A stretch of 64,000 nt of DNA from Candidatus Latescibacterota bacterium (lineage in GTDB: Bacteria > Latescibacterota > UBA2968 > UBA8231), in contig CBDETY010000003.1 in assembly GCA_965243025.1 (NCBI GenBank), positions 3,360,001-3,424,000 on the forward strand. Direction: 5' to 3'. Both the position numbers and the translations under genes were made by a program. The notes beneath the pieces are model-generated. The model saw only the letters and a program-made list of their open reading frames with translations, was not told the DNA's origin and did no database searches. Of this stretch, positions 1,451 to 10,501 are shown in pieces; position 1 is the stretch's first letter, and each line of letters opens with the position of its first letter.

Positions 1451-1573
1451 TTTTCGGGGAGTCGTGCAATTCGGGTAGTTCCTCTCCCTCCGTAGTCCAG
1501 AGCCCGCCCCGCAACCCCGAAATACAGTTTCCCCCTCGCTGTAGCGGAGCCCCACCCTCCCGGGCCGCCCACA

Positions 1574-1640
1574 TAACACGGTTAACCGGATGTTCCCCAG
1601 TCCCTGTTGACAAACCGGGAACATCGGTTAACATCGTTAA
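1574..1640 (+). promoter_or_regulatory. Promoter with TetR operators for the efflux operon
   Basis: TTGACA 1607-1612 and TAACAT 1629-1634; two TAAC-N3-GTTA palindromes (1574-1584, 1629-1639); long IR GTTAACCGGATGTTCCC/GGGAACATCGGTTAAC. Confidence 0.7.
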
Positions 1641-1643
1641 CTC

Positions 1644-3719
1644 ATGGACCGTATCGATATCCTCACCAGGGCCTGCGAGCTCTACCTCGAGGGCGGGGCC
1701 GAAGCCGTTTCCATGCGCCGGCTCGCCCGCGACCTCGGGGTCACCGCGCCGGCCCTCTACCGCCACTACGACAGCCGCGAGGAGATGCTCCTCGACGTCG
1801 TCGCCGAAGCCTACCGGCGGCTGAGCGAGCGGCTCTACGGCGCCCTCTCCGGCCGCACCCCCGCCGAACGGCTCTACCTGGCGGGGCAGGCCTACCTCGA
1901 CTTCGCCCTCGACCAGCCGAAGTACTACGAGATGCTCTACACCCCCGCCCACACTCTCGGCGCGGAGGAGTTTCCCGAGCAGGTGACGGAGCAGGTCGCC
2001 AGCGTCGGCCGCTTCTTCAACGACCGCGTGCGCGAGTGCATCGACGCCGGCCTCTTCCAGCCGCTCGACCCGGCCGACGTGTCCCGCACCCTGTGGGCCC
2101 ACGCCCACGGCCTGATCTCCATCTACCTGCGCGGCTGCCTGCACATGGACGCCGAGGAGTTCCGCCGCCACTACAGGGCTTCGAGCCGGCGGGCGATCAC
2201 CGGCATGGCCACCCCGGCGTACGAGGCGGAGATGGGCCGCGCCATCGAGGACCTCTCCCGGACGGAGGCCGCCTCCAAAGCCGGCGGCAGGGGCCGCCTG
2301 CGCACGGGTGCGGCGACCGGGCTGGCCTGGATCCTGCTTTCCTGGGGCGGGGCAACCGCCGCCGCCGAAACCGCGCCGCCGGCCCCGGAGCTGCTCCTGA
2401 GCATCGACGAGGTGGTGGACCTCGCCCTGGACCGCAGCCGCGAGTTGGCCGAGGCGCGGCTGCTGCTGACCGAGGCCGAGGAGCAGGTTTCCGAGGCCCG
2501 GGGGGAGATGTTCCCGAGCCTCGACTTCTCGGCCAGCTACGTCCGCAACATCGCGCCGCCGGTCTTCTTCATGCCGGCGATGATCTTCAATCCCGCGGCC
2601 CGTCCCGGGGAGTTCCTGCCCCTGGAGTTCAGCGCCGACAACAGCTGGCAGAGCGCCCTCACCCTGCGGCAGCCCCTGTTCGACCCGAGGGGCCTCTTCG
2701 GCCTCGCCGCGGCCGACAACTTCCGGCGGCTGCGCACCGAGATGGTCCGCGGCCACTCCCAGCAGGTGGCGACGCGGGTGCGCCTGCTCTGCTACGAGCT
2801 GCTGCTGCGCGGCGAGGAGGTGCTCCTGACCGAGCGGTCGCTCGAGCGCCTGCGGCAGGCCCTCGAGGAGACCCGCGGCCGGGCCCGGGCGGGCCTGGCT
2901 TCCGACTACGACGTGCTGCGCCTCGAGGTCGAGCTGGCCAATCTCGAGCCGCAGCTGCTGCTGGCCCGCAACGCCAGGGAATCGGCGCGGCGCCGGCTCG
3001 GCCTGGAGCTGGCCCTCGACGACCCCGGCCGGGTGCGGTTGTCCGAAGGCGAGGCCCTCACCGGCACGGAGGCCGGTCCGGGGCTGCCGGCCGGGGATCT
3101 GGTGCAGACGGCGCTGGCTCACCGCTCCGACGTGCGCCAGTTCGAACAGACCAGCGAGCTGGGCCGCAGACAGGTGCAGCTCGAGCAGGTGGAGTACCTG
3201 CCCAAGGTCTCCCTGTTCGCCACCTGGGACGTGCAGGCGCAGCAGAACGGAGGGCTCGATTTCTTCGGCAGCGAGGACAACCGCGCCACCAGCAAGATCG
3301 CCGGCGTGTCCGTGGACCTGCCCCTGTTCTCCGGCCTGCAGCGGGACGCCCGCGTCGACCAGCGGCGGGCGGCCCTGCGCCAGGCGCAGCTGCGGGAGCA
3401 GATGGCCCGGGACGAAGCCGCGGTCCAGGTCCGCGACCTCGAGGAGGCGCTGGCCGCAGCCGTCCAGCGCGAGAAGGGGCAGCGGCTGGCCGTATCCCAG
3501 GCCCGGCGGGGGTTCGAGATCGCCAGCGCCCGCTACCGCGAGGGGCTCGGCAGCCGCCTCGAGGTGACCGACGCCGAGGTCGCCCTGCGGCAGAGCGAGT
3601 TCAACATGGCCCGGGCCGCCCACGACCTGCTCGCCGGCAGGGCCCGGCTCGACCTCGCCATCGGGCGGGTGCCCCCCGTCGACGGCGAGGCCGTTACCGA
3701 TCGGAAGGAGACGGAGTGA
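1644..3719 (+). CDS. TetR-family regulator fused in frame to a TolC-family outer-membrane efflux protein
   Basis: N-terminal TetR HTH (SMRRLARDLGVTAPALYRHY) and WHG-like C-domain; internal signal-like helix; then OEP features (PSLDFSASY, YLPKVSL, LPLFSG, RYREGLGSRLEV.DAE); no stop codon between the domains. Confidence 0.8.
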   Translation: MDRIDILTRACELYLEGGAEAVSMRRLARDLGVTAPALYRHYDSREEMLLDVVAEAYRRLSERLYGALSGRTPAERLYLAGQAYLDFALDQPKYYEMLYTPAHTLGAEEFPEQVTEQVASVGRFFNDRVRECIDAGLFQPLDPADVSRTLWAHAHGLISIYLRGCLHMDAEEFRRHYRASSRRAITGMATPAYEAEMGRAIEDLSRTEAASKAGGRGRLRTGAATGLAWILLSWGGATAAAETAPPAPELLLSIDEVVDLALDRSRELAEARLLLTEAEEQVSEARGEMFPSLDFSASYVRNIAPPVFFMPAMIFNPAARPGEFLPLEFSADNSWQSALTLRQPLFDPRGLFGLAAADNFRRLRTEMVRGHSQQVATRVRLLCYELLLRGEEVLLTERSLERLRQALEETRGRARAGLASDYDVLRLEVELANLEPQLLLARNARESARRRLGLELALDDPGRVRLSEGEALTGTEAGPGLPAGDLVQTALAHRSDVRQFEQTSELGRRQVQLEQVEYLPKVSLFATWDVQAQQNGGLDFFGSEDNRATSKIAGVSVDLPLFSGLQRDARVDQRRAALRQAQLREQMARDEAAVQVRDLEEALAAAVQREKGQRLAVSQARRGFEIASARYREGLGSRLEVTDAEVALRQSEFNMARAAHDLLAGRARLDLAIGRVPPVDGEAVTDRKETE

Positions 3720-4846
3720 GGAACCAACTGCCATCGCGGCGCCGCGTCCTGGGCGCCCTGCTGCCGGCCGCCGGCGCGGCCCTGCTCGCCCTCGGGGGCT
3801 GCGGGGAAGCGCCCGGGGCCGCCGACGAGTCCGCCGCCCCGGAAGGGTCTGCTTCCCGCGAGGCGGCAGCGGCGGCCAACGGCCGCGTCGTCAACGTCGA
3901 AGTCGATACCCTGGTCCCGCGGGCCTTCACCGACGCCATCCGCCTGACCGGCACGGTGCGCGCCGACCGCGAGGTGATGCTCGCCGCCGAGGAGGGCGGC
4001 ACCGTGGCCGCGGTCCCGGCCGACAAGGGGGACCAGGTGCGCCGCGGCCAGGCCCTGGTCCGCCTGGAGGACGACCTGCTGCGGGCACAGCGCGACGAGG
4101 CCGAGGCCCAGGCGGCCCTCGACGCCGACCAGTGGGGGCGCCGGAAGCGGCTCTACGAAGTGGACGGAATCGGCACCGAAGAGGAGTACGTCGAAGCCCG
4201 GCTCGCCGCCGATCAGTCCAGGGCCCGGCTCGACCTGATCGAAGCGCGCCTGCGCCGCGCCGTGGTGCGCGCCCCCTTCGACGGGGTGATCGACCTGCGC
4301 CTCGTCGAGGTCGGCTCCGTCGTCGCCCCGGGCCAGCCGGTGGCCCGCATCCTCGACCTCGAGCCGCTGAAGGTGACCGCCGGCGTTCCCGAGCGCTACG
4401 CGGCGAAGGTGGCCCCCGGCGACCGGGCGACCGTCGCCTTCGCCGCCCTCGAGGACACCTGCGGGGCCGCCGTGTCCTACGTCGGGGCCGCGGTCGACGG
4501 CGGCCAGCGCACCTTCCCCGTCGAGCTCGACCTCGAGCGTCCGGTGGCCGGGGCCAAGCCGGCCATGGTCGCCGAGGTCACCCTCGTGCTCGAGGTCCAC
4601 CCGGGGGCGATAGTGGTGCCGAATCAGGCCCTGGTGCGCACCGAGGAGGGCTTCACCGCCTTCGTCGCCGCCGACGGAGTGGACGGCCCCGTCGCCCGGG
4701 CGCGCCCCGTCACCCTCGGCGCCTCCGGCGGCGACGAGGTGGTGGCCACTTCCGGGCTGTCAGAGGCTGAACGCCTGATCGTCGTCGGCCAGGAACAGGT
4801 TGCCGACGGCGACCGCCTGCGCATCGTACCGCGCCGCGGCCTGTGA
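3716..4846 (+). CDS. RND periplasmic adaptor (MFP) lipoprotein
   Basis: GTG overlaps upstream TGA; lipobox LGGC; VRAPFDGVI biotinyl-lipoyl motif. Confidence 0.9.
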   Translation: MRNQLPSRRRVLGALLPAAGAALLALGGCGEAPGAADESAAPEGSASREAAAAANGRVVNVEVDTLVPRAFTDAIRLTGTVRADREVMLAAEEGGTVAAVPADKGDQVRRGQALVRLEDDLLRAQRDEAEAQAALDADQWGRRKRLYEVDGIGTEEEYVEARLAADQSRARLDLIEARLRRAVVRAPFDGVIDLRLVEVGSVVAPGQPVARILDLEPLKVTAGVPERYAAKVAPGDRATVAFAALEDTCGAAVSYVGAAVDGGQRTFPVELDLERPVAGAKPAMVAEVTLVLEVHPGAIVVPNQALVRTEEGFTAFVAADGVDGPVARARPVTLGASGGDEVVATSGLSEAERLIVVGQEQVADGDRLRIVPRRGL

Positions 4847-7800
4847 GCGGGCCCGAGATGACCGATCGTCCGCGCGACAACGACGCCTTCAACGAGCTGC
4901 CCGTCACCTCCTGGGCGGTGCGCCACGGCACCAGCGTGCTCATGCTGTTCGCCATCATCGCCCTGGCCGGCACCCTGGCCTACCGCGGCGTCCCCAAGGA
5001 GGCCTTCCCCGAGATCGAGATCCCCGTGATCGCGGTGAACACCATTTACCCGGGGGTGTCGCCGAAGGACATGGAGTCGCTGGTGACGCGGGTGATGGAG
5101 CAGGAGCTCAGGACCATCCCCGACCTCAAGGAGCTGACCTCGACCTCGGTCGAGGGCTACTCGAGCGTGGTCGCCGAGTTCAGCACCGAGGTCGACCTGC
5201 ACGAGGCCCTGCGGCAGGTGCGCGAGAGGGTCGACCTCGCCAAGGCCGAGCTCCCCGCCGACGCCGAGGAGCCCCGCATCTTCGAGTTCGACTTCGAGGA
5301 GGTGCCGATCCTGCAGGTCAACCTGTCCGGGGAGTACGGGCTGGTCCGCCTCAAGGAGGTGGGCGAAAAGCTTCAGGACCGCCTCGAGCAGATCCCGTCG
5401 GTTCTGCGCGTCGACCTGCGCGGAGGCCGGGAGCGCGAGGTACAGGTCGACGTCTCCCTGCCGCGGCTGCTCTACTACGGCCTGACCCTGAAGGACGTGG
5501 TAGAGACGGTGCGCAACGAGAACGTCAACATCCCAGGGGGCTCGATCGACGTCGGCGAGCGGAAGTTCCTGGTCCGCGTCGACGGCGAGATCGACGACCC
5601 GCTGTCGATCGGCGACCTCGTGGTGGACGCCCCGGGGGGCCGCCCGGTGTACGTGCGCGACGTCGCCGAGGTGGATTTCGGGTTCGCCGAGCGCCAGAGC
5701 TACGCCCGCCTCGACGGCCTGCCCGTGGTGACCCTCGACGTTATCAAGCGCACGGGGAAGAACATCATCGAGACGGCCGACGCCGTGCACGCGGCGATCG
5801 CGGCGATGGAGGCGGACTTCCCCCCCAACACGGTAGTGAAGACCACCTCGGACATGTCCCGCGACATCCGCATGATGGTCAACAGCCTGGAGAACAACAT
5901 CCTCTCCGGCCTGCTGCTGATCGTCGGGGTGCTCCTGTTCTTCCTCGGCGTGCGCACCTCGGTCTTCGTCGGCGTCGCCATCCCGACCTCGATGCTGCTC
6001 TCCTTTCTCCTCCTCGGGCTGCTCGGGGTGACCATGAACATGGTGGTCCTGTTCTCGCTGATCCTCTCCCTCGGCATGCTGGTCGACAACGCCATCGTCA
6101 TCGTCGAGAACACCTACCGCTACGTCGAGGAGGGCTGGGAGCGGGCCACGGCGGCGCGCAAGGCGGTCGGGGAGGTGGCCCTGCCCGTCATCGCCTCGAC
6201 ATTGACGACCCTGGCCGCCTTCGGTCCGCTGCTGTTCTGGACCGGCACCGTCGGCGAGTTCATGAAGTACCTGCCCACGACCCTGATCGTGACCCTGTCG
6301 AGCTCCCTGTTCGTCGCCCTCGTGATCGTCCCGGTGCTGTGCAGCCGCTGGCTGCGCCTGGAAGGGGAACGCCCGCCAACGCTGCCGCGGAGCGGACGCC
6401 GGGGGCTGATCGCCCTGGCCGTCCTGGCCGCCGCCGGGCTGGCCGCGGCCAACGCCCTGACCCTGGTCCTGCTGATCGTCACCGCCCTGGCCGCCATGGT
6501 TGCCCACCGCTGGATCCTCGGACCCCTGGCCCGCCGCTTCCAGGGGAAGGGCCTTCCCTGGCTGGTCGACCGCTACGAGGGCGTCCTCGAGTGGGCCCTC
6601 GGCCACCGTTTCACCGTCGTGGCCGGATCCTTCTCGGTGCTGGCCGCCATGGTCGTCGCCTTCTCCTTCTTCAACAGCGGCATCGTGTTCTTCCCCGAGG
6701 ACATTCCACCGCGGCAGGTCTGGGTCGACGCCGAGGCGCCGGTAGGCACGCGCCCCCAGTTCCTCGACGGCATCGCCCGCGAGCTGGAGCTGCAGGTGCG
6801 CGGCGTCGAGGGGTACGAGGACGCCGAATCGGCGGTGACCACCGTCGGGGCCGGGGGCAGCCCGCTGATAGGGGGCACCCAGGGAGCCAGCGACGCGCGC
6901 CTGATGGTGAGCTTCACCGACTACCAGGAACGCCGGTTCGACAGCTTCGGGACCCTGGCGCGCATGCAGGAAAGGGTGGGGCGCGAGATCGCCGGGGCCG
7001 AGATCTCGGTGGACAAGCCGGTGGACGGCCCGCCCCAGGGGGCGCCGGTCAACATCGAGATCGCCGGCAAGGATCCGGCGGTGCTGAAGGACCTGTCCGA
7101 CCGCGTCCTGCAGATCCTGAGAAGCTCCCCGGTGGCCGGCAAGCTCAGCGGCCTGGAGAGCGACCTCGACGAGGCCCGCCCGGAGCTTGCCGTGCACGTC
7201 GACCGCGAAAGGGCCGCCCTGTACGGCCTGTCGACGGCGGACGTGGCCGGCGTGGTGCGCACCGCCGTGCAGGGCACCGAGGCGAGCCGTTACCGCACCG
7301 GCAACGACGAGTACGACATCGTCGTCCGTCTCGCCGAGCCCTGGCGGAAGGACCTCGAATCGCTGCGCGACCTGGTCGTCCAGAACGGACCGGGGGAGCC
7401 GATCCCGCTGGTGTCGGTGGCCCGCTGGACGGTGGGAGAAGGGCTCGGCTCGATCCGCCGCAAGGATATGGACCGCATGGCGACGATCAGCTCCGACGTG
7501 CGCGCCGGACTCAACAAGAACGCCGTGCTCGCCGAGGTGCAGCAGAGCCTGGCGCGGTTCGCCGACGACGAGCTGCCCCCGGGCTACACGGTGCGCTACA
7601 CCGGCCAGCAGGAGGACCAGGCCGAGGCCATGTCGTTCCTGACCACCGCCTTCCTGGCCGCCCTGGGTTTGATCGCCTTCATCCTCGTGACCCAGTTCAA
7701 CTCGGTGATCAAGCCCCTCATCATCCTGACGTCGGTGATCATGTCGACCGCCGGGGTCCTGTTCGGCCTGATGGTGTTCCGCATGCCCTTCGGGATCATC

Positions 7801-8259
7801 ATGACCGGCGTCGGCGTCATCTCCCTGGCCGGGATCGTCGTCAACAACGCCATCGTCCTCGTCCACTACATCGACGTGCTGCGCCGGCGCGACGGCCTCG
7901 AGCGCCAGGCCGCCCTCGTCCGGGCCGGGCGCACCCGCCTGCGGCCGGTGATCCTGACCGCGGTCACCACCGCGCTGGGCCTGGTGCCGCTGGCCATCGG
8001 CCTCAACTTCGACTTCTTCGGCCTCTACGGCAGCCTCGACCCGGACCTGTTCTGGGGGGGCGAGCAGGCGGCGTGGTGGGGCCCGATGGCGATCGCCGTG
8101 ATCGTCGGCATCCTCTTCGCCACCTTCCTGACCCTGGTCCTGGTGCCGGTGATGTACTCGCTGACCGACGACATGGGGCGATTCTTCGGCCGTCACTTCT
8201 CCGCGGCGGCAGAGCCTGCGGAGAGCCCTGGAAGCAGCGTCCCGGTTCCAGGCGGTTGA
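4843..8259 (+). CDS. RND efflux permease (AcrB/AcrD/AcrF family)
   Basis: GMLVDNAIVIVEN, GIVVNNAIVL, RLRPVILTA motifs; two TM blocks. Confidence 0.95.
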   Translation: MSGPEMTDRPRDNDAFNELPVTSWAVRHGTSVLMLFAIIALAGTLAYRGVPKEAFPEIEIPVIAVNTIYPGVSPKDMESLVTRVMEQELRTIPDLKELTSTSVEGYSSVVAEFSTEVDLHEALRQVRERVDLAKAELPADAEEPRIFEFDFEEVPILQVNLSGEYGLVRLKEVGEKLQDRLEQIPSVLRVDLRGGREREVQVDVSLPRLLYYGLTLKDVVETVRNENVNIPGGSIDVGERKFLVRVDGEIDDPLSIGDLVVDAPGGRPVYVRDVAEVDFGFAERQSYARLDGLPVVTLDVIKRTGKNIIETADAVHAAIAAMEADFPPNTVVKTTSDMSRDIRMMVNSLENNILSGLLLIVGVLLFFLGVRTSVFVGVAIPTSMLLSFLLLGLLGVTMNMVVLFSLILSLGMLVDNAIVIVENTYRYVEEGWERATAARKAVGEVALPVIASTLTTLAAFGPLLFWTGTVGEFMKYLPTTLIVTLSSSLFVALVIVPVLCSRWLRLEGERPPTLPRSGRRGLIALAVLAAAGLAAANALTLVLLIVTALAAMVAHRWILGPLARRFQGKGLPWLVDRYEGVLEWALGHRFTVVAGSFSVLAAMVVAFSFFNSGIVFFPEDIPPRQVWVDAEAPVGTRPQFLDGIARELELQVRGVEGYEDAESAVTTVGAGGSPLIGGTQGASDARLMVSFTDYQERRFDSFGTLARMQERVGREIAGAEISVDKPVDGPPQGAPVNIEIAGKDPAVLKDLSDRVLQILRSSPVAGKLSGLESDLDEARPELAVHVDRERAALYGLSTADVAGVVRTAVQGTEASRYRTGNDEYDIVVRLAEPWRKDLESLRDLVVQNGPGEPIPLVSVARWTVGEGLGSIRRKDMDRMATISSDVRAGLNKNAVLAEVQQSLARFADDELPPGYTVRYTGQQEDQAEAMSFLTTAFLAALGLIAFILVTQFNSVIKPLIILTSVIMSTAGVLFGLMVFRMPFGIIMTGVGVISLAGIVVNNAIVLVHYIDVLRRRDGLERQAALVRAGRTRLRPVILTAVTTALGLVPLAIGLNFDFFGLYGSLDPDLFWGGEQAAWWGPMAIAVIVGILFATFLTLVLVPVMYSLTDDMGRFFGRHFSAAAEPAESPGSSVPVPGG

Positions 8260-9271: not shown

Positions 9272-9364
9272 GCGGCCCCTTTGCCTGCAGGTGAACCCGG
9301 GGGGAATTCCCGGATCATTAATGTGCAGTACGATCCGACCGGGCCGGTATTTGGAGGGAGTTGC

Positions 9365-10501
9365 GTGTTCTCAGACGAGGAACTCATTGTCAGGTGCAAC
9401 CAGGGAAGTCAGGACGCCTTTCGCCTGCTTGTGGACAGGCATTGGGCAAGCGTCGTGCGAACGGTTTCGTCCCTTCTCGGCGATCCGGACGATGTCGAGG
9501 ATGCCGCGCAGGAAGCGTTCATCCTGGCCTGCAGGCGCCTCGATGATCTGAAAGACCCCGGCAAGTTCCCGGCATGGCTGCACACCATCGCCCGCAACGC
9601 CGCACGGAAGGCGCTGCGGCAAAAGCGGCTCGAGCGGGAACGCCTGCCGGAGCACGAGTTGAGGAACGGTCTGCTCGCATCGGACTTGCAGGTCTCCCTC
9701 GACTACAGGGAGCTCAAGGCCCTGGTCAACAGCCTCGCCCCGCCGGACAGGGCCGTCGTCACCCTTTTCTATCTGGCCGGTATGGAGCTCCATCGAATCG
9801 CCGAACAGCTCGGCATACCCGTGGGCACGGCAAAAAGCCGACTCCACAGATCGCGCAGACTGATGCGAGAAAGGATCCGGGACATGGAACGGAAATCACA
9901 CGAGCGCACCGCCTCTCCGGAGACCTCCCCGCGCGACGTCATCGGGGGAATGAGGGGGCTCATCAACTGGCAGGTGGTTCCAGCCGATGAGGGGCTGTCT
10001 TCCTGGAGGCCGCATCCGGCCGCGGAGCGGGACGCTCTCGACAAGACCTGGAAAGTCGAAGGCAACGCCGTCGTCGGTGACAGCAGGGAACTCGGGGAGG
10101 AATCCCCCCTGCTCGTCGCCGGCGAACCGGCCTGGTCCGACTACGAGCTCTCCTTTCTGATGACCCCGATCTCCGGAGGGAACGCCCAGGCGGCCTTCCG
10201 CCTGTCCGAGGAGGGGAGGAGCTTCTATATGCTCGATTTCCTCCTGGGATGGCAGGCGGTTGCCGTCAGCAGGGTGGTCGACCGCGGTGTAACCAAGCTG
10301 AGCGTAGTGAACCACGCTCTTCACGCCGGACAGGAATACGAGGTCCAGATCGCAGCCCGGGGTGCCTCCCTGACCTCGTACGTCGACGGGAAGCTGGTCA
10401 ACCAGGTTGCCGACGAGACCTTCCGCGCCGGGGCTTTCGGCTTTATGGTGTGGGAGAGCAGCACGGCCTTCCGGGACGTGAGGTACCGTCTTCTGCACTG
10501 A
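9365..10501 (+). CDS. ECF sigma factor with C-terminal beta-sandwich (DUF1080-like) extension
   Basis: DVEDAAQEAF, F.AWL..IARN, IAEQLGIPVGTAKSRLHR; GGAGGGAG RBS before GTG 9365; C-domain W.VE..., WSDYEL, YVDGKLV, FRDV. Confidence 0.85.
   Translation: MFSDEELIVRCNQGSQDAFRLLVDRHWASVVRTVSSLLGDPDDVEDAAQEAFILACRRLDDLKDPGKFPAWLHTIARNAARKALRQKRLERERLPEHELRNGLLASDLQVSLDYRELKALVNSLAPPDRAVVTLFYLAGMELHRIAEQLGIPVGTAKSRLHRSRRLMRERIRDMERKSHERTASPETSPRDVIGGMRGLINWQVVPADEGLSSWRPHPAAERDALDKTWKVEGNAVVGDSRELGEESPLLVAGEPAWSDYELSFLMTPISGGNAQAAFRLSEEGRSFYMLDFLLGWQAVAVSRVVDRGVTKLSVVNHALHAGQEYEVQIAARGASLTSYVDGKLVNQVADETFRAGAFGFMVWESSTAFRDVRYRLLH

Follow-up and report, generated by a model that had tools for sequence, protein, structure and literature searches.

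An in-frame fusion of a TetR-family regulator to a TolC-family outer-membrane factor, joined by a predicted internal signal peptide, at the head of an RND efflux operon

The window, the whole 64,000-nucleotide stretch of DNA analysed here, contains a forward-strand open reading frame at positions 1644..3719 that begins with ATG and comprises 691 codons plus a stop. At a GC content of about 72% an open frame alone is weak evidence, and a 774-residue frame on the opposite strand and a 1079-residue frame in another phase overlap the same bases; the Pfam domains that lie in the frame of 1644..3719 decide the matter. TetR_N is found at residues 6-51 (E 1.5e-11; 44.3 bits against a cutoff of 24), TetR_C_33 at residues 80-171 (E 5.9e-14), and OEP, with an E value of 1e-48, in two stretches that represent two tandem OEP repeats, the better at residues 485-674. 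Thus both families occur in one frame, as an earlier sequence-only reading had claimed in describing a full TetR followed by a full TolC within a single 691-residue product. Two further forward-strand genes follow. The first (3716..4846) encodes, by its Pfam domains, a periplasmic adaptor of the HlyD/MFP family; its GTG start overlaps the stop of the fusion as GTGA and has an AAGGAG 5 nt upstream. The second (4843..8259), whose start overlaps the adaptor stop, encodes an RND inner-membrane transporter of the AcrB/AcrD/AcrF family (ACR_tran). The locus is best explained as a TetR-regulated tripartite RND efflux operon composed of a tetR-tolC fusion, an adaptor and an RND pump.

The TetR module (1644..2282, forward strand), delimited by Pfam, PDB matches and an AlphaFold model, consists of a helix-turn-helix domain (residues 6-51), a ligand-binding domain extending to about residue 186, and a C-terminal helix at residues 191-213. 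Sixty-seven TetR-family sequences in the PDB match at E <= 0.001, among them the NalD structure 5daj. The AlphaFold model is all-helical across residues 3-213, with helices up to residue 186 followed by the helix at 191-213, and its pLDDT is mostly 85-95 up to residue 200. Residues 242-691 (2367..3716, forward strand) would constitute the mature TolC-family outer-membrane factor. In addition to the two OEP stretches, this part is predicted to contain four beta-strands (292-303, 332-346, 521-534 and 547-558) and the long helical hairpins typical of TolC (helices 348-415, 421-455, 566-632 and 638-673). No stop codon follows the TetR module, and TetR is consequently not encoded here as a free-standing protein but as part of a 691-residue precursor. 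It follows directly from the sequence that every TetR molecule made from this gene is synthesised covalently joined to the TolC precursor, an obligatory attachment.

Upstream of the fusion, a predicted sigma-70-type promoter (1607..1634, forward strand; TTGACA, a 16-nt spacer and TAACAT, 10 of 12 matches to consensus) is the sole promoter-like match in the interval 1400-2400, where shuffled sequences lead one to expect 0.0, and it is conserved among fused and unfused relatives. The end of the -10 box lies 9 nt ahead of the ATG at 1644 and a Shine-Dalgarno (SD) sequence is lacking, which makes a leaderless or almost leaderless mRNA probable. A contig from an RNA library begins about 45 nt upstream of this ATG, that is, upstream of the predicted -35 box, and speaks against a leaderless transcript unless it reflects DNA carry-over or read-through. 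Two operator-like sites accompany the promoter. One, designated O2 (1627..1641, forward strand), reads GTTAAC-ATC-GTTAAC, a palindrome of 6-3-6 form that overlaps the -10 box and the region of the transcription start; the sequence GTTAAC[A/G]TCGTT[A/C/T]AC occurs in all seven loci of the fused clade, and close variants occur in the split relatives shown. The other, O1 (1572..1586, forward strand; CATAAC-ACG-GTTAAC), is an inverted copy with which O2 pairs as an inverted repeat in the alignment; it is conserved in 6/6 fused loci and recognisable in split relatives as well. Both are putative TetR binding sites. An RNA structure in this upstream region was considered and rejected: compensatory change in the consensus fold was limited to 3 of 17 pairs, and the pairing was read as the two inverted operator copies.

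The junction between the two modules, RGRLRTGAATGLAWILLSWGGATAAA|ET (residues 216-241|242-243; window positions 2289-2366|2367), resembles a Sec-type signal peptide (2289..2366, forward strand), called by a hand heuristic with Kyte-Doolittle values rather than by a trained predictor. It is composed of an n-region RGRLR, an h-region TGAATGLAWILLSWGG and a c-region ATAAA, with the predicted cleavage site A-A-A|E between A241 and E242. The segment lies internally, after 215 residues of TetR, not at the N-terminus as is usual for the TolC family. The basic, hydrophobic and AxA succession noticed from the window sequence is a conserved property: 16/16 fused clusters combine a basic n-region with a hydrophobic core and have [A/V]-x-A followed by E or D. 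The best 11-residue Kyte-Doolittle mean of the h-region is 1.37-2.55 in the fused clade versus 1.76-3.05 in the split relatives, the fused values being lower on average. Several one-residue indels, all in frame, occur in the linker within the fused clade, and the pLDDT of residues 212-246 falls below 50. Cleavage by signal peptidase I at A241|E242 is the best-supported assignment suggested by these features. A lipoprotein signal was rejected for this protein, given that a Cys after LLS is present only in P0002 and P0011 and the window has a Trp at that position; a true lipobox, L-L-A-C, is found in a decayed sister lineage (P0020 and P0021). A Tat signal was likewise rejected, as the n-region lacks a twin-arginine motif.

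The fusion recurs in a group of sponge-associated Gemmatimonadota. Fifteen further protein clusters of 689-691 residues (81-98% identity), all with TetR_N and OEP, derive from separate assemblies that include 5.5 Mb contigs, and the open frame is intact in five other genomes or metagenome-assembled genomes (MAGs; G001, G019, L013, L014 and L015); across these clusters and genomes identity reaches down to 80-81%. Gap-free coverage of the junction comes from contigs of other sequencing runs: a 1463-nt contig from another study spans 1572-2797 with 0 gaps, a 365-nt contig is identical over 2186-2550, and the RNA-library contig spans 1625-2435 with 0 gaps. These observations confirm that the TetR-TolC fusion is genuine and evolutionarily retained, and they refute the possibilities, raised from the window alone, that it is an assembly error, a stop codon lost in this assembly only, or unique to this assembly. 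A frameshift interrupts the TolC part in G002, a member of the same genus in which 1 nt is missing from a run of C, and another interrupts it in cluster P0017, so the gene is either error-prone in assembly or sometimes lost. A query with residues 1-200, directed at proteins of 380-1210 residues for other fusions from related TetRs, returned no further TetR-OEP protein; it recovered only the same clade, together with one protein combining TetR with an amidohydrolase and a small number of long AcrR proteins. A scan of metagenome contigs found split relatives only, and looking up the clusters left the fused Gemmatimonadota proteins without a name. Among the matches were also two single proteins that combine RND and OEP domains, P0194 (1556 residues) and P0240 (1488 residues).

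In related Gemmatimonadota the two genes are separate and adjacent. Among the 17 split loci listed, which include several duplicates of one contig, the TGA of tetR overlaps the ATG of tolC as ATGA in 16, the exception having a 5-nt gap. When 12 closer TolC outgroups root the tree, fused forms group as one clade (SH-aLRT 100) nested above split forms. In a tree with very distant outgroups, about 29% identical and separated by a branch that exceeds 6 changes per column, the root fell inside the fused group; this contrary result was set aside in favour of the closer outgroups. The tree with closer outgroups suggests that the fusion was a single derived event in a Gemmatimonadaceae lineage, from adjacent tetR and tolC genes. 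A frame-joining change at the ATGA overlap would have removed the stop, and the tolC start would have been lost later. Because the ATGA already couples tolC translation to that of tetR in split relatives, the fusion may have been close to neutral, tolerated more than adaptive, and not a new dose-coupling device.

Purifying selection acts on both halves of the protein. In 15 pairs of 6 sequences, dN/dS was 0.06-0.19 for TetR (residues 1-186), 0.28-0.54 for TolC (residues 245-691) and 0.17-0.71 for the tail and signal peptide. In one relative, G012, the TetR part has decayed and TolC apparently starts at a former TetR Met, a case indicating that in-frame internal starts are able to take over.

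We favour, with a probability of roughly 60%, the interpretation that this is a gene fusion at the operon head whose precursor is cut by signal peptidase I into TetR and an exported TolC. The N-terminal TetR domain would fold in the cytoplasm, while the internal signal peptide (residues 216-241) would insert into SecA/SecYEG in a hairpin arrangement, with the TolC part being threaded to the periplasm. Signal peptidase I would then cut behind A-A-A241, and TolC would proceed to the outer membrane. The remnant would be a 241-residue TetR whose C-terminal tail, the former signal peptide, is weakly hydrophobic. It would either reside briefly at the inner membrane or be freed like ordinary signal-peptide remnants, and it would repress the operon at the conserved palindromes over the promoter. 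The sequence-only reading had likewise proposed a polyprotein resolved by signal peptidase; the conserved signal peptide and its [A/V]-x-A motif leave this as the best explanation, the cleavage itself being deduced from them. It had also proposed that repressor dose is coupled to channel export. A single precursor would indeed mean that repressor and channel are made 1:1, but the coupling may not be a novelty of the fusion, as split relatives have the ATGA overlap.

A stronger form of this regulation, which we regard as improbable, is that the repressor becomes active only once TolC has been exported and the precursor cut, perhaps with intramembrane clearance of the tail, such that repression would report directly on Sec export and channel delivery. 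If true, the operon would be under export-coupled transcriptional feedback, a 241-residue transcription factor would formally be the signal peptide of an outer-membrane protein, and this arrangement would have arisen with TetR twice independently, in Gemmatimonadota and in Elusimicrobiota, whose fusions are compared below.

Processing by signal peptidase has to be weighed against the possibility that one frame gives rise to two products, which we judge to be unlikely. The fusion would then supply TetR, its TolC part being degraded or minor, and most TolC precursor would start at the in-frame ATG at 2232..2234 (forward strand; Met197) with a 45-residue signal peptide that has a long n-region. 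This ATG is preceded by GAGGCGGAG, with GAGG 5 nt upstream, and Met197 is kept in 16/16 fused clusters. The genome carries a canonical anti-SD, and SD-like motifs precede 164/470 near-determined starts (35%) versus 1342/12085 internal ATGs (11%), an approximately threefold enrichment at likely starts that makes the GAGG mildly favour some internal initiation; the start apparently adopted by TolC in G012 points the same way. However, Met197 aligns with a Met in the C-terminal tails of unfused TetRs and lies inside the confidently predicted helix 191-213, so its conservation is explicable as that of an ancestral TetR residue without a start-codon role, and 11% of internal ATGs bear an SD-like motif by chance. 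Furthermore, the interval 1400-2400 has no promoter-like site internal to the gene, and in the Elusimicrobiota family a Met stands directly before the h-region of the signal peptide in only 28/121 members, whereas 66/121 have a Leu at that place. Nor do the 6 loci compared share a conserved ATG, GTG or TTG in the stretch from codon 198 to the h-region. Finally, internal initiation would leave the fusion protein still produced whenever TetR is produced. Dual initiation at this ATG, an alternative put forward when the window was first read, is thus weakened, yet the SD-like motif in front of it stands.

Alternatively, the fusion might remain uncleaved, either in the cytoplasm, as a TetR whose TolC tail serves no purpose, or anchored in the inner membrane, with the pump using another TolC paralogue. 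Consistent with this, the source genome (G000) has 7 matches to the fusion query in all, 6 of them elsewhere in the genome and mostly to the TolC part, the h-region is just moderately hydrophobic, and the TolC parts of G002 and P0017 are frameshifted. The TolC part is nevertheless under purifying selection, the [A/V]-x-A motif is kept in every fused cluster, and the adaptor and RND genes are retained directly downstream. Moreover, given TolC architecture, a TolC held at the inner membrane by a tether of about 10 residues would be unable to reach the outer membrane. We therefore consider an uncleaved fusion very improbable. An artefact or recent pseudogene, in which sequencing or assembly error or decay removed the stop in this genome only, can practically be dismissed: high-GC homopolymer runs do give rise to indel errors, and frameshifts are seen in G002 and P0017, although elsewhere in the gene, but the fusion is present in the 15 other clusters and 5 other genomes or MAGs, gap-free contigs from other runs span the junction, and purifying selection acts on each half.

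In textbooks, a bacterial signal peptide is a short tag at the N-terminus that the cell discards. In this protein, what precedes the predicted cleavage site amounts to an entire transcription factor maintained by selection. If the precursor is processed as proposed, it would be a natural bacterial polyprotein from which the general export machinery yields a cytoplasmic regulator and an outer-membrane channel. The locus offers a simple test system for how Sec copes with a large N-terminal domain that is folded, for the fate of a 241-residue "signal peptide", and for whether 1:1 production of repressor and channel alters efflux regulation. Additionally, the series of split, fused and decayed forms in one bacterial family illustrates how translationally coupled neighbours may merge and then separate again, and the automatic label "TolC family protein" conceals the regulator half of such proteins.

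The closest comparison is with the split Gemmatimonadota operons (loci L005, L006, L016-L021 and L023-L032), which have an orthologous TetR (59-71% identity) and TolC (55-59% identity) and agree with the fused locus in promoter, operator-like sites and gene order. They retain the TGA/ATG overlap and an ordinary N-terminal TolC signal peptide, whereas in the fused locus a single continuous frame has replaced the two and the start of tolC has been lost. Canonical TetR-family-regulated RND operons include AcrR/acrAB, TtgR/ttgABC and NalD/mexAB-oprM. They too place a TetR-type repressor near genes for an adaptor, an RND pump and an outer-membrane factor, with palindromes over the promoter. Their repressor is a separate soluble protein and is usually divergently transcribed, whereas here it occupies the first 213 residues of the channel precursor.

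The same order of TetR, internal signal peptide and TolC is found in an Elusimicrobiota family in which 120/120 listed clusters have TetR_N and OEP (P0238 and P0284-P0402; proteins of 599-634 residues). It differs from the Gemmatimonadota fusion in sequence (29% identity in the TolC part and 33% in the helix-turn-helix) and in having no linker, the TetR C-terminus abutting the n-region. This family is much older and larger, and because the Gemmatimonadota fusion derives from split ancestors, the two are taken to have independent origins. A Verrucomicrobiota cluster, named by Atlas, is a lead toward a third origin. JGI names some Elusimicrobiota members 'outer membrane protein TolC/DNA-binding transcriptional regulator YbjK' or '.../AcrR family transcriptional regulator', whereas the NCBI label for some is 'TolC family protein'. 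Literature searches, judged by titles and the beginnings of abstracts among the papers listed, yielded no published description of a TetR-TolC fusion, and the passages on 'fused', 'gene fusion' and 'signal peptide' in an efflux review (PMC8277102) describe no regulator-channel fusion. The earlier estimate of this gene as the window's best candidate for an undescribed system is nonetheless tempered by the wide recurrence of the architecture in Elusimicrobiota and its automatic annotation in databases.

A parallel for the proposed processing is FbcH of Bradyrhizobium, a cytochrome b/c1 polyprotein that is cleaved at an internal signal sequence. As proposed for the TetR-TolC precursor, one bacterial gene gives rise to two proteins, which the export machinery parts at an internal signal peptide. 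The products of FbcH, however, are both membrane or periplasmic respiratory subunits, whereas one product of the TetR-TolC precursor would be a cytoplasmic DNA-binding protein.

A single ATG-initiated ORF at 1644-3719 (+) encodes 691 residues, and Pfam places TetR_N (aa 6-51), TetR_C_33 (aa 80-171) and two OEP stretches extending to aa 674 in this one frame, confirming the order of TetR and TolC that had been read from the sequence alone. By itself an open frame is little proof, because the DNA has a G+C content of approximately 72%; two other ORFs, one of 774 aa on the opposite strand and one of 1079 aa in a different frame, also cover these bases. The stop codon of the fusion is overlapped by the GTG of an HlyD-type adaptor gene (3716-4846) as GTGA, with AAGGAG 5 nt upstream, and the adaptor gene is followed by one encoding an AcrB-type RND pump (4843-8259). 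The fusion thus heads a tripartite efflux operon. Elsewhere in the window, a 406-aa ORF (9281-10501, +) contains ECF-type sigma-70 regions 2 and 4 (aa 35-200), and its C-terminal half weakly matches 3-keto-disaccharide hydrolase/DUF1080, scoring 24.8 bits where the cutoff is 26.8. The protein may be a C-terminally extended ECF sigma factor; alternatively, the ORF may have been called too long in this GC-rich sequence.

The fusion is real. A search of 5.8 billion clustered proteins returned 918 matches, and among the best 120, which were listed, at least 15 further clusters drawn from different ENA/NCBI assemblies, some of them on contigs of 5.5 Mb, have the TetR_N+OEP architecture at 689-691 aa and 81-98% identity over the full length. 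The frame is also intact in the whole genomes G001, of the same genus (91%), and G019, of a different genus (83%), and in three further MAGs, labelled Gemmatimonadaceae or 'Latescibacterota', at 80-83%. Fusion DNA occurs mainly in sponge metagenomes. Three contigs cross the junction: one from another study aligns to 1572-2797 gap-free and with 32 substitutions, one of 365 nt is identical to 2186-2550, and one from a metatranscriptome library, a type of library that can contain DNA, spans 1625-2435 without gaps. These independent intact frames and junction-spanning contigs refute an assembly error or a stop codon lost in this assembly alone, the artefacts considered in the sequence-only reading. 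Two exceptions were observed: the 640-aa protein P0017 matches over approximately 468 residues before going out of frame, and in the one-contig genome G002 (same genus) the frame is split at aa 345 by one C missing from a CCCC run (locus L004, G002:C1:6932578-6936612; equivalent to window position ~2673), which could be either a homopolymer error or a real loss producing a pseudogene.

In relatives at 55-61% identity tetR and tolC are two genes. Among the 17 split loci listed, several of which are one contig found twice, the stop of tetR (TGA) and the start of tolC (ATG) share bases as ATGA in 16, and a 5-nt gap separates the genes in the remaining one; the TolC that they encode begins with a conventional signal peptide of ~20-25 residues. 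A TolC-part tree with 12 TolCs at 48-52% identity as outgroup places all 12 fused rows in a single clade (SH-aLRT 100), sister to P0020+P0021 (99), with the split forms at the base. The result of a previous tree is contrary: with outgroups at ~29% identity it had rooted inside the fused group. Its outgroup branch exceeded 6 changes per column, and we regard that root as unreliable. Within the sister lineage, the TetR part of G012/P0020 lacks the HTH and is garbled in the middle, and the remnant (about 1240-1700 of locus L007, G012:C2:3248003-3251929) continues in frame into an intact TolC. A former TetR Met, which precedes a basic stretch and then an L-L-A-C lipobox, now resembles the start of TolC, and the signal peptide appears to have been rebuilt from the TetR C-terminus. 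This fused gene has thus reverted to a stand-alone TolC that may be lipidated. Basal split forms, a fused clade and a decayed sister therefore form a series from split to fused to decayed. Both halves appear to be functional while fused: in 15 pairs among 6 fused DNA sequences, dN/dS was 0.06-0.19 for TetR (aa 1-186), 0.28-0.54 for TolC (aa 245-691) and 0.17-0.71 for the intervening tail and signal peptide (aa 187-244).

An AlphaFold model (mean pLDDT 84.5) has TetR helices to aa 186, a further helix at 191-213, residues 212-246 with pLDDT below 50, and a TolC-type fold from aa 250. The segment earlier quoted as a signal peptide is aa 216-241, with an A-A-A|E site between A241 and E242 (2366|2367). 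In 16/16 fused clusters the n-region is basic, the core is hydrophobic and [A/V]-x-A precedes an acidic residue, and the linker varies in length by several one-residue in-frame indels. For the core, the highest Kyte-Doolittle mean over 11 residues is 1.37-2.55 in fused proteins versus 1.76-3.05 in split relatives.

No stop codon separates TetR from TolC, and TetR is therefore made only as part of a 691-residue precursor, which is its functional source because TetR is strongly constrained. A polyprotein cut at the internal signal peptide is the best explanation, if an unproven one. The signal peptide would enter SecYEG as a hairpin, the TolC part would be translocated, signal peptidase I would cut after A241, and TolC would mature in the outer membrane. 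TetR would retain a short, weakly hydrophobic tail and be transiently membrane-associated or released; signal-peptide remnants are cleared by SppA/RseP-type proteases. Of the sequence-only reading, the shared precursor thus stands, and its cleavage remains a prediction.

The main rival, additional or predominant synthesis of TolC from ATG 2232 (Met197, preceded by GAGGCGGAG), is a live but minor one. The genome has a canonical anti-SD, and SD-like tetramers precede 164/470 near-determined starts versus 1342/12085 internal ATGs; because so many internal ATGs carry them, the GAGG before Met197 is only weak evidence. Met197 lies inside helix 191-213, and unfused TetRs have a Met at the aligned position of their tails; the residue was therefore inherited from TetR. 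No ATG, GTG or TTG is conserved among the 6 loci from codon 198 to the hydrophobic core, and the window has none in this stretch. Furthermore, among 121 members of an independent Elusimicrobiota fusion family the residue directly before the signal peptide is Leu in 66, Ala in 13 and Met in only 28, which argues against a general need for an internal start. As to the consequences of the polyprotein, a release of repressor coupled to export is a bolder and unlikely reading. Because the translation of tolC depended on tetR before the two genes were joined, the fusion may have been close to neutral.

The sole sigma-70-like site in 1400-2400 is TTGACA-16-TAACAT (1607-1634). Its -10 box is overlapped by a 6-3-6 palindrome, GTTAAC ATC GTTAAC (1627-1641), which has an inverted copy at about 1572-1586; both are kept in fused and split relatives. 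ATG 1644 has no upstream SD and lies 9 nt from the end of the -10 box (7 nt in several split relatives), which suggests a leaderless mRNA. Against this, the RNA-library contig begins about 45 nt upstream of the ATG, unless it reflects DNA carry-over or read-through. The -35 box is flanked by the arms of an inner inverted repeat, ATGTTCCC ... GGGAACAT (1586-1627, +); the letters of the repeat vary by lineage with complementarity kept (e.g. GTCCCC/GGGGAC in locus L013), and 3/17 predicted pairs in the region are changed on both sides in a 6-sequence alignment. Directly upstream of the operon lies a toxin-antitoxin pair (563-925 and 941-1450, +), in which an Xre/MbcA/ParS-type antitoxin (C-terminal toxin-binding domain, E 9e-11) precedes a RES-domain toxin (E 4.7e-26).

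Taken singly, the parts of the fusion are typical of families already known; what is new is how they are arranged, with its implications for export and regulation. A literature search whose scope lay mostly outside subscription journals found no description of a regulator-channel fusion, and the part of one large efflux review that we consulted does not mention one. Three ESM Atlas clusters have TetR_N and OEP in at least 98% of members, with Gemmatimonadota (98 members), Elusimicrobiota (170) and Verrucomicrobiota (54) as commonest phyla; these clusters serve as leads only. A profile search of 1.84 billion representatives returned, among its best 150, the TetR_N+OEP proteins P0230 (619 aa) and P0238 (628 aa). 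From P0238, both domains were found in 120/120 clusters listed (599-634 aa; best 120 of 133 matches), with source names such as 'TolC family protein', 'hypothetical protein' and 'outer membrane protein TolC/DNA-binding transcriptional regulator YbjK'. P0238, from the Elusimicrobiota family, and the window's protein share 29% identity across TolC and 33% across the HTH. Because split genes were ancestral to the Gemmatimonadota fusion, TetR-TolC fusions arose independently at least twice. In P0122 (461 aa), a TetR with 49% identity to the window's is joined to an amidohydrolase-family domain (PF07969). Finally, among the best 150 of the same profile search, P0194 (1556 aa), P0240 (1488 aa) and the 661-aa fragment P0190 join a complete AcrB-type RND pump to a C-terminal TolC (ACR_tran + OEP), and P0190, the one sequence read, has a hydrophobic, signal-peptide-like stretch between the two parts. 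Like the window's fusion, these proteins have another module fused in front of the signal peptide of TolC.
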